7,115 nucleotides of DNA from a virus (lineage: Duplodnaviria; Heunggongvirae; Uroviricota; Caudoviricetes), in the IMG/VR virus record IMGVR_UViG_2690316210_000014; one strand, 5' to 3'. Below are positions 189 to 3,100 of this stretch, one piece after another. Below the pieces are notes generated by a model. It made no database searches and was not told where the DNA came from. It was given only the letters and a program-made list of their open reading frames with translations. Position 1 is the first letter of the stretch. Each line of letters begins with the position of its first letter. The position numbers and the translations under genes were made by a program.

Positions 189-1271
189 TCATTTTCTCTG
201 GCTGATCTTTACCGGATAACCATCCCGAAGATCAATTAAGTGCTCCGGTTCAGAAGCAAACCATGCATAAGATCCCCACGCCAATTCTGGTATTGCCTTT
301 TTAAAAGGCAGAGCACTTCTGTCCATAAATGCCGTAAGGAATGCAAGATTTTTCTCGCTGAACCCAGCGTCAATAGCCAAATGAGTGAGAGTAACTTTTC
401 GTTCCCTGTTTATAGGCCCATCTGTCGCAACTACTTCAGTGAAAACTACAAGCATGTCCGAACCCGTTCGGTCCTCTCCCAAATCAATCAAAATAATATC
501 TGGAAGTGCTTTTGAGGCATCAATATTCAGCCCCAATGCTTTTGCCAATACATCATCCTGAGCAACAACTTTATTCCCGGATTCAGACAACCAGAGCACA
601 GTTGGATTCTTAAGAAAATTAGGAGCAAAAACTTCGATGACGGCCTTAGCTATTGTACTTGACGGGCCCGGAGCTAAAGTTCTCTTCTCTCCATTTGGGA
701 AAGTGACGACTACGGCATCAGCAGCAATCACTGCCCCTGATTTCAATAAACGCAACCTAGCAAGAGCGGCTTTGTTCAAATGATTTTCTTGCCAGGAACT
801 TATTGCACTCAGCAGCGAATCTCCTTCAAGCCCGGCATCAAAGAGTGCTGCAAAAGAGCGATTCAAACTGTAACGAGGACGAGAGGATGTGGTGGGTATA
901 CCTTTACGCTCAACAATTGCATTGCAAGGTATTAGGCCATTTTTTATAGTTTCATCACGTATTGGCTCACGCGTATTTTCCGCATACCATGCATCAGCAG
1001 GCCTTATCTTTTGTTTAGAGAAAGTCATCTTTACCCAGCTTTCTCTGGACGCATCATCAGTAAGAGCAGCCTGCGAATCTCCCATACTTACAACCTGGCT
1101 GGGCCTTATCCATCGCCCCAGCCCCTCAACCGCACCAGCATAAAACATGACAAAAATTGTTTTTGCAGCTATTTCCCGAATTAAATATCCACGATTCTCA
1201 GTCCCTTCAGGGAAAATTAATTGTAATCTTTCCCGGATAACATTCAATGGGGGAACAACAGGCAGATTCAT
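189..1271 (-). CDS. Putative Type II restriction endonuclease, partner of the adjacent methyltransferase; family not established (BsuBI/PstI-like is a guess)
   Basis: 360-aa ORF immediately 3' of the methyltransferase on the same strand. Its ATG (1269-1271) overlaps the methyltransferase stop in an ATGA (1268-1271), with GGAG about 10 nt upstream. A possible acidic catalytic segment LPDIILIDLGED...VVFTEVVATD is present, but there is no canonical PD-(D/E)xK lysine. The call is mainly contextual. Confidence 0.55.
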   Translation of the reverse strand: MNLPVVPPLNVIRERLQLIFPEGTENRGYLIREIAAKTIFVMFYAGAVEGLGRWIRPSQVVSMGDSQAALTDDASRESWVKMTFSKQKIRPADAWYAENTREPIRDETIKNGLIPCNAIVERKGIPTTSSRPRYSLNRSFAALFDAGLEGDSLLSAISSWQENHLNKAALARLRLLKSGAVIAADAVVVTFPNGEKRTLAPGPSSTIAKAVIEVFAPNFLKNPTVLWLSESGNKVVAQDDVLAKALGLNIDASKALPDIILIDLGEDRTGSDMLVVFTEVVATDGPINRERKVTLTHLAIDAGFSEKNLAFLTAFMDRSALPFKKAIPELAWGSYAWFASEPEHLIDLRDGYPVKISQRK

Positions 1272-3100
1272 GCAATCATCACTCCATAGAAACCAGCGAT
1301 AGTTCTCTCAATAATCCGTCTGTGGACGCCAGCATCAATTAACGATTGAATCTCCATCACCTGCTCCAGAGAAGGCAACGGGATTGAATTCAATTCATAG
1401 GCCGAAACAGCAACACTTCCGCTTATACACCTGAACGCCCGATCGACAACATGCGAATTAAGTAGCATATCAATAACATCAGGGCGAACCGCAGAGAACA
1501 ATCCGTTTGAATATACAATATTAATATGGTTTTCAACTACTACGCCACCAGTTTCATCTATAAATCCCTGAGGTAAAATTGCCGCTAAAATCCTTCTGTC
1601 CTGTTCCTTCGATGTTGTCCGCTGAACAAGCACACATTCAGATTTTGTCACAAGGAAACCCTGTTGTGGGGTTATATCGATATAGGGAACATGATTTTTT
1701 CTGTCTGCACTAAAACGAAAACCAGCTGAAGTTATTGATTCCGCCCAGACTAATGGGTAGCTATTTTTTCCTTTCGTCGTACGCAACTGCGACTTAAATC
1801 GATTCCAGACTAACTGACCTGTAGAGACTGAGTATCCCAGATCAGCTAAACGCGTAGACATCTGTTTTAATACATTAAGAAAACAGGCATCATCTTTAAC
1901 GCGTGGCAAAAGCCACGTTGCTCCACCTTTTTCTATATCAACATTACCTATTTTCTCAATTTTTGCTTTGTTCAACCCCTTAGGGACAAGTGAGGATACC
2001 TGGGCCCGAACTTTATGTTCTCCCGCCTTGAATGCTGTCAACATTGTTTCCTGGAGAACATCGTCAAAGACCCCATCCCTGTCAGCGACGAAATCAAGGG
2101 CATACGGAGTAGTTTTTTCGGTCAAAAGGGTTCGCAGCGCGGTGAAATACTGCCCACCAAGAAAAGAAGTTGGCGTAAGAAATGCAATAACTCCTGTTTT
2201 CTCTTTAACCATGCGAACAGCTAAGTCGGTGAACAATCCATATAGATTTGCATGACCAAATAACGAACGAGAATATTTTTCTCTCGTTTTAATATCGAGA
2301 GTGACACGTCCGTAAGGCGGATTCCCTACCACAAGATCATAACCAGAAAATTTATCTTGCTGAAGCGCATCAGCAACAATAATTGTATCTTCAGGCAATC
2401 TACGTTTTACCTTTACACATAGTGGCATTAGTACAGATTCGAGCAATACCAAACTCATCCAAGCCGCAAATGGATCGATTTCTATCCCCTTTAAACGACG
2501 ACTGATTCTCCTCAACATCCATTCAGGGGAAGACCCCTTGTCTTTTTTTAACATTCGAATGGCTACTGGTGCCAAAAATGCACCGCCACCACACGCAGGA
2601 TCAATAACCGATGCATGAGAAAAATCAACACCAGACTTTTCAGCCAGGTCCAAGAGACGCGCTACCAAAGGTGGGGGGGTATAGTAAGCCCCCAATTCCG
2701 AACGGTAAGCGGATGGCAGCATTACCGTATAAATTGACCCAATCAGATATCCAGCGTCCTCCGCCGGAAATTGAGCAATAAGCTCACCTGTTCGTTCAGC
2801 GAGCTCGCGTGCATCACATGGAATGTCTTCTATGTAAACAGTGTGCGGTACTGCCCTCATTTTAATGCTGCTTTTTTGCTTTTTTGCAAGGGTATCCCAA
2901 TATGCAGCTACGATGCTGAAGCAGTATGAGCGGGCATGCATCAACCTTGACTGCCCGGTTTTGTAATTGCCCGCATAACCTTTGGCCATGGCTTTACAAG
3001 TTTGATATCTTTCCAGATTAGAAAACTCATTATCTGTAAAAAAATCAAAATGTTGCACATTCATAATGTAAAATCCTAATGTATCAAACATGCGGGCCAT
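1268..3100 (-). CDS. Gamma-class N6-adenine DNA methyltransferase (TaqI/Eco57I-like amino-MTase) with C-terminal target-recognition region
   Basis: 610-aa ORF with motif order X-I-IV: GAYYTPPPLVARLL (motif X-like), VIDPACGGGAFL (AdoMet-binding motif I), DLVVGNPPYG (catalytic NPPY motif IV). About 250 aa follow motif IV and about 140 aa precede motif X. The coordinates are the longest ORF; an alternative start is the ATG at 3062-3064 (MNVQHF..., AGGA about 10 nt upstream). An in-frame TGA lies 9 nt upstream of the 3100 start. Confidence 0.9.
   Translation of the reverse strand: MARMFDTLGFYIMNVQHFDFFTDNEFSNLERYQTCKAMAKGYAGNYKTGQSRLMHARSYCFSIVAAYWDTLAKKQKSSIKMRAVPHTVYIEDIPCDARELAERTGELIAQFPAEDAGYLIGSIYTVMLPSAYRSELGAYYTPPPLVARLLDLAEKSGVDFSHASVIDPACGGGAFLAPVAIRMLKKDKGSSPEWMLRRISRRLKGIEIDPFAAWMSLVLLESVLMPLCVKVKRRLPEDTIIVADALQQDKFSGYDLVVGNPPYGRVTLDIKTREKYSRSLFGHANLYGLFTDLAVRMVKEKTGVIAFLTPTSFLGGQYFTALRTLLTEKTTPYALDFVADRDGVFDDVLQETMLTAFKAGEHKVRAQVSSLVPKGLNKAKIEKIGNVDIEKGGATWLLPRVKDDACFLNVLKQMSTRLADLGYSVSTGQLVWNRFKSQLRTTKGKNSYPLVWAESITSAGFRFSADRKNHVPYIDITPQQGFLVTKSECVLVQRTTSKEQDRRILAAILPQGFIDETGGVVVENHINIVYSNGLFSAVRPDVIDMLLNSHVVDRAFRCISGSVAVSAYELNSIPLPSLEQVMEIQSLIDAGVHRRIIERTIAGFYGVMIA

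Follow-up and report, generated by a model that had tools for sequence, protein, structure and literature searches.

The window, a 7,115-nucleotide stretch of phage DNA, carries what is probably an intact Type IIP restriction–modification (R-M) module, borne by a prophage as a moron in the post-replication slot equivalent to ren/nin and likely to act by the mechanism set out below. The cassette consists of a methyltransferase gene (M), a restriction endonuclease gene (R) and its own 5' region (Table 1). A first-pass annotation had proposed a complete two-gene Type II R-M cassette as prophage cargo; both open reading frames were found in place, and the family and fold assignments given here bear the proposal out.

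Table 1 Features of the R-M cassette and of its flanks in the window
Feature	Position	Strand	Basis and remarks
IS1 terminal inverted repeat	1..36	.	Context, outside the cassette; matched at 100% by at least 5000 plasmid records
parE toxin gene, 3' fragment	37..148	+	Left flank, convergent with R, truncated by IS1; translation, homology from window position 37
Mobile R-M cassette (M, R and own 5' region)	184..3231	-	blastn to Klebsiella, Kluyvera and Citrobacter prophages; GC content
Restriction endonuclease gene (R), 360 aa, BsuBI/PstI/SdaI family	189..1271	-	Pfam, PADLOC, phmmer, AF2/Foldseek
Overlap of M stop and R start, ATGA	1268..1271	-	Read in the sequence; translational coupling
Gamma-class N6-adenine DNA methyltransferase gene (M), 598 aa	1268..3064	-	Pfam, PADLOC, motifs, AF2/Foldseek
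Cassette-borne 5' region upstream of M	3065..3231	-	About 120 nt conserved in four genera; alignment
Candidate extended -10 element, TGaTATTCT	3136..3144	-	Invariant in the four-genus alignment
Perfect 16-bp palindrome, TCATAAC-GG-GTTATGA	3160..3175	.	Candidate operator
Phage gene, 118 aa, zinc-ribbon-like, phrog_1621	3315..3671	-	Right flank; PHROG match; also in R-M-less phages and prophages

The endonuclease and methyltransferase genes

R matched the Pfam domains BsuBI_PstI_RE (PF06616, 152.2 bits) and BsuBI_PstI_RE_N (PF17728, 106.6 bits), for both of which the cut-off is 27 bits, and the full-length PADLOC profile REase_II PDLC03589 (426 bits). To our knowledge, the only solved structure of the family is that of SdaI (PDB 2IXS; CCTGCAGG), to which R aligned in phmmer with E=1.8e-16. 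The AF2 model of R (pLDDT 91.8) retrieved SdaI from the PDB in Foldseek (2ixs_A, E=8e-18, prob 1.00) as the sole match below 1e-3. The global TM between R and SdaI was low (0.40–0.45), which we attribute to the two domains being oriented differently relative to each other. The model and the alignments predict an N-terminal wHTH recognition domain followed by a C-terminal PD-(D/E)XK domain. The 360-aa protein, a putative endonuclease in the first-pass annotation, was checked for a non-nuclease fold and instead has the SdaI fold; it can be named more precisely as a member of the BsuBI/PstI/SdaI family.

The catalytic residues are retained. P257-D258 and E279 are conserved in 62 homologues down to 30% identity, with E279 invariant and D258 nearly so, and they lie in register with the PD and E of SdaI and R.EcoGIII. 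A recognition-domain motif, W-Y-A-x-N-(T/S)-R-E-x-x-R, is common to all three proteins. The position of SdaI K251 is occupied in R by an alanine (A282) that is invariant in close homologues. The possibility that R is inactive for want of this lysine was rejected, since the biochemically active R.EcoGIII has a threonine there.

The longest open reading frame of M starts at 3100 and encodes 610 aa, the length given earlier for the methyltransferase. Nearly all homologues of M are 598 aa long; in Klebsiella and Kluyvera the ATG at 3100 is not in frame, and Citrobacter lacks it. M therefore most likely starts at the ATG at 3064, so that the reading frame of the first-pass annotation (1268–3100) exists but appears to be an over-extension. 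The M protein matched Eco57I and N6_Mtase in Pfam and the full-length PADLOC profile MTase_II PDLC03338 with 994 bits. Across 41 homologues there is no variation in motif I (D155-PACGGGAF) or motif IV (N248-PPY; 598-aa numbering), and motif I is followed by motif IV and then by a C-terminal TRD, the order of the gamma class. Profile searches identified CamA (E=7e-15) and M.TaqI (E=3e-13). The AF2 model (pLDDT 88.6) matched CamA, M.BseCI and M.TaqI in Foldseek at E values of 1e-17 to 1e-20, with a TM of 0.72–0.74 normalised to M.TaqI. Motif order, TRD and structural matches thus uphold the earlier description of a gamma-class, TaqI-like enzyme.

M and R are separate, adjacent genes with a 4-nt overlap, as in Type II (IIP-like) systems, and GGAG at 1282–1285 is a possible Shine-Dalgarno sequence for R. 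M lies directly upstream of R on one strand in 80/80 distant loci from many phyla, which indicates that the pair is an obligate module. At no family-invariant position does either protein of this copy deviate.

Cassette boundaries and the prophage slot

Comparison by blastn with Klebsiella, Kluyvera and Citrobacter prophages revealed homology from window position 184/196 to 3174/3231 at 76–83% nucleotide identity, with unrelated flanks. In R-M-less E. coli prophages, homology stops near 134 and restarts at 3300; these prophages have both flanks in common with the window and carry other small genes in the slot. The slot is variable and lies between the replication/Ren-like genes and parDE-DUF968-rusA-Q, in the middle of the early-right operon. 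Direct or inverted terminal repeats, as a sign of transposition or site-specific insertion, were absent from the cassette borders. The cassette has a GC content of 43.6% (GC3 ~36%) compared with 51.8% (GC3 ~52–59%) for positions 3315–7115, and in the three other genera the values are 43% against 48–50%. It is therefore compositionally foreign and, as expected of a moron or accessory cassette, is present or absent between conserved backbone genes.

These findings refine the first-pass annotation in three respects. Its suggestion of a horizontally acquired cassette is sustained by the foreign composition and by the other genes found at this slot in related prophages, but the event was an exchange of cassettes at a variable slot and not a plain insertion. 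Its three sampled GC values (0.367, 0.383 and 0.55) were exact and the contrast is real, although the samples were unrepresentative and the gap is ~8 points, not ~17. Its distal placement of the cassette in the early operon does not hold, as in complete relatives the operon continues past convergent parDE to DUF968-rusA-Q.

The replication module upstream of the cassette comprises YdaT, a replisome organiser, a DnaC-like protein, DUF1627/YdaW and DUF977/LygF. The gene calls and an 84% nucleotide identity to phage Rac confirm that the cassette is co-oriented with, and downstream of, a Rac-like replication module, as had been noted before; the genes of the window all have the same orientation. 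A Ren-like protein (phrog_142) was assigned by PHROG among the replication-side genes. The 118-aa gene on the right flank appears, from its occurrence in R-M-less relatives, to be prophage backbone outside the cassette.

Several lesions mark the prophage. The window sequence is cut by IS1 at position 36/37, and the sequence at 1..36 adjoins the IS1B transposase gene in R100. In complete relatives, ParE (103 aa) and ParD are encoded convergently after R, followed by DUF968-rusA-Q. The helicase loader (DnaC-like) has a 32-aa in-frame deletion, and in a related prophage of E. coli FDAARGOS_943, Q, cro and dnaC are frameshifted and an IS21 sits among the head genes. The carrier is a decaying lambda-like (Rac-like) prophage, and its source is most likely Shigella sonnei.

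The 5' region and expression signals

In the four-genus alignment, the 5' region is nearly invariant from ~3185 to the M start codon and diverges further upstream. It contains an AGGA Shine-Dalgarno sequence for M at 3074–3077 and a perfect palindrome that is conserved in Klebsiella and Kluyvera and has one arm mismatch in Citrobacter; this palindrome is a candidate operator. A consensus scan of positions 1–3800 detected neither a sigma-70 promoter upstream of M on the coding strand nor a terminator after R. The extended -10 element, which was not among the results of the promoter scan, is a weak candidate. No Rfam family was found in the 5' region, and its predicted RNA fold was no better than that of shuffled sequences (z=0.12). 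The cassette boundaries leave space for M, R and ~170 nt only, and no third open reading frame that could encode a controller (C) protein exists on the coding strand within 184–3231. The cassette is thus an R-M system without C-protein control, in which the 16-bp palindrome is present but a C gene is not.

Distribution and recognition site

A matching, intact cassette occupies the equivalent slot in Klebsiella, Kluyvera and Citrobacter prophages. At least 1000 contigs, named S. sonnei or Enterobacteriaceae, encode the exact R protein, which indicates that it is maintained intact. Among complete E. coli genomes, 2/5426 carry the cassette. A search of 50,697 phage records gave no nucleotide-level match, and tblastn returned only the distant EcoGIII type. 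Literature searches for the S. sonnei system (CTGCAG, methylome, BsuBI and names of PstI isoschizomers) found nothing on it. RefSeq annotation already gives both genes their correct names, and PADLOC has profiles for them.

As far as we know, every characterised BsuBI/PstI/SdaI member has a CTGCAG core in its site. By analogy, the recognition site of the present system probably has this core; identity to the characterised CTGCAG enzymes is 20–26%. An R with 55% identity is encoded on plasmid pXPP88 of Xanthomonas phaseoli, the species of the PstI isoschizomer XphI, which offers a lead on the site. The avoidance of 64 palindromic hexamers was calculated as maximal-order Markov O/E in the flanks of 80 carrier genomes (1.34 Mb in all). 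No specific depletion of CTGCAG was seen (O/E 0.86, rank 42/64), a result that, drawn from carrier genomes only, is uninformative about the site; the lowest values were those of CTCGAG (0.48) and GAGCTC (0.56). Two CTGCAG sites lie within the window.

Proposed mechanism and alternatives

In the proposed mechanism, the 598-aa M would transfer a methyl group from SAM to the N6 of adenine in a short palindromic site. The 360-aa R would bind the same site via its N-terminal winged-helix domain and cut unmethylated copies via the C-terminal PD-(D/E)XK domain (D258, E279). With M translated first and R coupled to it through the ATGA overlap, modification would run ahead of restriction. In the lysogen, the ~120–170 nt of own upstream DNA probably provide the promoter for expression and perhaps also an operator. 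In this state, incoming unmodified phage and plasmid DNA would be restricted, and loss of the prophage would be penalised by post-segregational killing. We infer enzymatic activity, the recognition sequence and expression in the lysogen; the roles in defence and addiction are proposed by analogy with EcoGIII (PMC6602927, PMC3893438) and with general Type II R-M biology. The decay of the host prophage, with IS1 in parE and a deletion in the loader, could mean that the cargo is under relaxed selection.

The cassette is co-oriented with the early-right operon and lies inside it, after the replication genes and before Q, and its borders show no consensus promoter or terminator, which would also be consistent with a mainly lytic role. 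The cassette would then have no lysogen-active promoter and would be read through from the early-right (pR-type) operon after induction, methylating progeny DNA against isospecific R-M systems of the next host, with the breakdown of host or competing DNA as a possible further role. We regard this as improbable, because R and M induced together in an unmodified cell would cut the phage's own DNA, the window itself holding two CTGCAG sites, and because the cassette's own 5' region is conserved across genera. The prophage, moreover, looks defective, yet R is intact on at least 1000 contigs, and the analogous EcoGIII is active in lysogens (PMC3893438). In another reading, the cassette is a silent or inactivated relic, intact by chance in the young clonal S. 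sonnei and performing neither restriction nor methylation. IS1 at the cassette edge, the shortened loader, the damage in the FDAARGOS_943 prophage and the occurrence in only two complete E. coli genomes all point this way. A cell that loses M but keeps an active R dies, and R-M systems usually decay by losing R first. Here R is full length, family-invariant positions are unsubstituted in both proteins and independent prophages of three other genera hold intact copies of the cassette, which makes a relic unlikely.

Methylation itself may instead be the main effect of an active system, altering host transcription and leaving restriction secondary; M.EcoGIII, as cited in PMC6602927 and PMC4393132, is reported to affect the expression of ~1,900 genes in E. 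coli C227-11. We consider this reading unlikely, since the strict co-conservation of R with M (80/80 loci) argues for selection on restriction and addiction and not on methylation alone. There is likewise a slim chance that the cassette represents a prophage-adapted lineage of a distinct 360-aa/598-aa subfamily of the PstI superfamily. In such a lineage, the N-terminal helical region of M would bind the 16-bp palindrome over the promoter in place of a C protein, the site would differ from CTGCAG, and the module would be fixed in S. sonnei, shaping its phage susceptibility, plasmid uptake and epigenome.

Comparison with known systems

Temperate phages are known to arm and addict their hosts by means of prophage-borne Type II R-M systems, as documented for EcoGIII of Stx2 phages. 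The present module is conceptually an ordinary kind of mobile defence cassette. It adds a second, distantly related prophage cassette of the PstI superfamily beside EcoGIII, in a different slot and in at least four enterobacterial genera, and it is apparently present in very many S. sonnei genome assemblies. If active, it would hinder both phage therapy and the genetic manipulation of S. sonnei and would give this pathogen an extra m6A motif.

The cassette resembles the morons, or accessory cargo, of the ren-nin region of lambdoid phages: the replication genes and a Ren-like protein are on one side of it and the DUF968-RusA-Q block is on the other, slot contents differ among related phages, and another addiction module, ParDE, adjoins it. 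Classical morons bring a promoter and a terminator with them, whereas the consensus scan detected neither here and only the 5' region is conserved.

EcoGIII is the closest precedent. It is carried by the Stx2a prophages of E. coli O104:H4 C227-11 and O145:H28 RM13514 and by phage ArgO145, and, like the present system, is a prophage-borne Type IIP pair with M followed by R on one strand, a BsuBI/PstI-type R and a gamma-class m6A M. In an EcoGIII-type pair of a Stx2a phage, the genes have the same 4-nt overlap (M 2358–3827, R 3824–4777 in the coordinates of locus L102). Both EcoGIII proteins align with the present ones over most of their length, including the TRD of the methyltransferase. M.EcoGIII is shorter (489 versus 598 aa) and lacks the N-terminal helical extension, and R.EcoGIII has 317 aa versus 360 aa. 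With 26% identity for both proteins and a different genomic position, directly downstream of cI in the immunity region and not after the replication module, orthology with EcoGIII was rejected. In the lysogen, 98.8% of CTGCAG sites are methylated by the PstI-like EcoGIII, and lambda-like phages are warded off (PMC3893438, PMC6602927).

SdaI has the same N-terminal wHTH and C-terminal PD-(D/E)XK domains as R, and its PD...E and the arginine equivalent to R291 align, at an overall identity of ~20%. SdaI reportedly recognises an 8-bp site. The PstI and BsuBI prototypes share PF06616 and PF17728 with R, and PstI-size PADLOC profiles match (PDLC03420, E=2e-28; PDLC03227, E=2e-50), but the present proteins belong to a separate subfamily of larger proteins with the full-length profiles PDLC03589 and PDLC03338. 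M.TaqI, CamA and M.BseCI have the fold and motif order of M in common, whereas identity is 13–19% and recognition sequences differ; CamA is an orphan, whereas M is always paired with an endonuclease. The YenI-type profiles (PDLC03359, 840 aa; phrog_1639, 838 aa) combine both activities and the same domains, their N-terminal part matching M and their C-terminal third matching R. YenI-type enzymes are one fused M-R polypeptide, in contrast to the two translationally coupled genes of the present cassette.

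Gene organization and composition

All eight genes of the window are co-oriented on the minus strand, and the methyltransferase (M) and endonuclease (R) genes overlap by the sequence ATGA. Pfam and PADLOC matches to a methyltransferase and an endonuclease bear out the two-gene restriction–modification (R-M) system proposed in the first-pass annotation, and the interpretation given there is supported after correction of the operon position, GC magnitude, methyltransferase start codon and endonuclease family. The three 60-nt samples behind its compositional contrast (GC of 0.367, 0.383 and 0.55) were numerically correct but extreme; the real contrast is between 43.6% for M and R together (GC3 ~36%) and 51.8% for positions 3315–7115 (GC3 ~52–59%). 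Both genes are already correctly named in RefSeq and fall within PADLOC profile coverage, and the cassette is an uncharacterised new member of a well-known kind of R-M system.

Coordinates of features in the window
Feature	Position	Strand	Description
IS1 terminal inverted repeat	1–36		100% match in at least 5000 plasmid records; adjoins IS1B transposase in R100
parE remnant	37–148		Last 37 codons only; toxin gene interrupted by IS1
R, endonuclease gene	189–1271	−	360 aa
M, methyltransferase gene	1268–3100	−	610 aa as longest ORF
Possible extended −10	3136–3144		TGaTATTCT
Perfect 16-bp palindrome	3160–3175		TCATAACGGGTTATGA; ~95 nt upstream of M start codon
orf118	3315–3671	−	118 aa; CxxC-type zinc-ribbon signature, weak Pfam Zn_Ribbon_TF match; phrog_1621, unknown function
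DUF977/LygF gene	3729–4166	−	PHROG 142 'Ren-like exclusion protein', E=2e-46
DnaC-like helicase-loader gene	4914–5564	−	216 aa; 96-nt in-frame deletion at ~5199–5201
CGTGAC repeat clusters	6185–6223, 6445–6483		Four repeats each, spacing ~10–11 nt; inside replisome-organiser gene

Endonuclease, methyltransferase and predicted site

R contains PF17728 (107 bits) and PF06616 (152 bits; Pfam cut-offs of 27 bits), the two BsuBI/PstI endonuclease-family domains, and matches a PADLOC Type II REase profile over its full length (426 bits). Its only relative with a solved structure is SdaI (2IXS; E=1.8e-16), which was also the sole PDB match (Foldseek E=8e-18) to an AlphaFold model based on an alignment of 62 homologues (pLDDT 91.8). 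Residues P257-D258 and E279 correspond in the alignments to PD...E in SdaI and in R.EcoGIII, a biochemically active PstI-like enzyme, and E279 and R291 are invariant among homologues down to 30% identity. Given the SdaI-like model and the aligned catalytic residues, the 360-aa protein has a nuclease fold, as had been proposed. At SdaI position 251, a lysine in SdaI, R has an alanine; because the active R.EcoGIII has a threonine there, the alanine reflects a trait of the family rather than a lesion.

M matches Pfam Eco57I and N6_Mtase and, over its full length, a PADLOC Type II MTase profile (994 bits), and its motifs run in the order I (DPACGGGAF), IV (NPPY) and C-terminal TRD. The structural model of M (pLDDT 88.6) gave Foldseek E values of 1e-17 to 1e-20 against CamA, M.BseCI and M.TaqI, all gamma-class adenine methyltransferases, in agreement with the initial description of M as a TaqI-like gamma-class N6A enzyme. 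The 610-aa ORF exists, but the real product is almost certainly a 598-aa protein starting at ATG 3064, since homologues are 598 aa long, Klebsiella and Kluyvera have ATG 3100 out of frame, and Citrobacter carries a mutation in it. An AGGA lies 9 nt upstream of ATG 3064.

PstI, BsuBI and EcoGIII recognise CTGCAG and SdaI recognises CCTGCAGG; to our knowledge, the CTGCAG core is common to all characterised family members. Because R also keeps the recognition-domain motif YA-N(T/S)RE--R, we predict with moderate confidence that the cassette's site has this core. Palindromic-hexamer O/E ratios in 1.34 Mb of flanks of 80 distant related M-R loci (L014–L093), calculated without a control set, neither supported nor opposed this prediction. 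The most under-represented hexamers there were CTCGAG (O/E 0.48) and GAGCTC (O/E 0.56).

A mobile unit within the early-right operon

Complete relatives are lambdoid prophages adjoining potC with the gene order cro-ydaT-replisome organiser-dnaC-(DUF1627)-DUF977-orf118-M-R-<parE<parD-DUF968-rusA-Q-lysis-terminase. This order and the Ren-like DUF977 put the cassette midway along the early-right operon, at the equivalent of lambda ren/nin; the operon continues through DUF968-rusA-Q, and the cassette is not at its distal end as first annotated. DUF977/LygF is another possible exclusion function beside R-M. The orf118 product is kept directly upstream of this variable slot in many lambdoid prophages.

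The flanks of the cassette are common to relatives that lack the R-M genes (phage vB_EcoS-813R8 and an E. coli O145:H28 prophage); homology restarts at window position 3300 and, on the other side, runs into parE to ~134. The slot of these relatives is filled by other small genes, Ea22-like and DUF7167 among them. Klebsiella, Kluyvera and Citrobacter prophages carry the same M-R pair (84–89% protein and 76–83% nucleotide identity) between replication genes and dinI-DUF968-rusA-Q. At the nucleotide level they match the window from 184/196 to 3174/3231, and this delimits a mobile unit of ~3.05 kb that runs from 5 nt past the R stop codon to ~110–170 nt upstream of M. Its GC content is ~43% in the four genera, with flanks of 48–52%. 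No terminal repeats were found at the cassette borders, and recombination between mosaic phages is therefore the likely route of exchange.

Of 5426 complete E. coli genomes, 2 contain the cassette at the nucleotide level; none of the 50,697 phage records does, and PHROGs holds no family for its protein subfamily. The exact R protein is present on at least 1000 contigs, the cluster members being mostly named Shigella sonnei. Taken with the near-identical contig L012 (described below) and the IS1 end of the window, these names indicate that the window comes from S. sonnei. The subfamily is widespread: across 80/80 loci, from Proteobacteria, Acidobacteria, Chloroflexi, Firmicutes and others, M is followed directly by R. 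It is also found on conjugative Burkholderia glumae plasmids and a Xanthomonas phaseoli plasmid. At three of the 80 loci (L035, L037 and L061), the partner of a subfamily R (53–60% identical) is a far more divergent M (~26% identity) of the M.PstI/EcoGIII size class, a pairing that suggests swapping of methyltransferase partners within the superfamily.

Carrier state and expression

ParDE, a second addiction module beside the cassette in relatives, is dead here because the IS1 insertion leaves only the end of parE. The DnaC-like loader lacks a stretch of 32 residues that closely follows Walker A in the otherwise identical 248-aa copy of L012, a contig 99.7% identical to window 650–7115, and the replication module is thus probably defective. 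The CGTGAC clusters resemble iterons and, by analogy with the lambda O gene, are a possible origin for the prophage. The carrier prophage of E. coli FDAARGOS_943 (L001; NZ_CP065615.1 1569237–1612387) is also degraded, with IS21 inserted among its head genes and with Q, cro and the dnaC-like gene annotated as frameshifted; its M and R are intact.

Alignment showed that ~120 nt upstream of the M start codon, including the Shine-Dalgarno sequence, are nearly invariant in four genera and that sequences further upstream diverge. The palindrome, a candidate operator for autoregulation in this C-protein-less cassette, is kept in Klebsiella and Kluyvera; the Citrobacter copy carries a single mismatch. 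A consensus scan of the region found no promoter, and there was neither an Rfam family nor unusual RNA structure; despite these null results, the conservation, palindrome and possible −10 make a cassette-borne promoter and operator a reasonable, if unproven, inference.

We consider it probable, and the most likely reading, that the cassette works as a Type IIP R-M moron, active and expressed in the lysogen. M would be made first and R through translational coupling to it; the DNA of host and prophage would be methylated, incoming unmodified DNA cut, and cassette loss followed by post-segregational cleavage. Three other readings are unlikely, each to about the same degree: expression by read-through in the lytic cycle only, a silent relic in a decaying prophage, and a mainly epigenetic role.

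Comparison with known systems

The closest described system is EcoGIII, a PstI-like (CTGCAG) R-M system of Stx2 prophages that gives protection from lambda-like phages and, in a lysogen, methylates 98.8% of CTGCAG sites (PMC3893438; PMC6602927). Both systems have M followed by R with a 4-nt overlap. However, the EcoGIII proteins are smaller (489 and 317 aa), show 26% identity to those of the cassette and are encoded next to cI. Because of this low identity, the size difference and the cI-side position, the cassette is not an EcoGIII orthologue; it belongs to another subfamily and occupies another slot.
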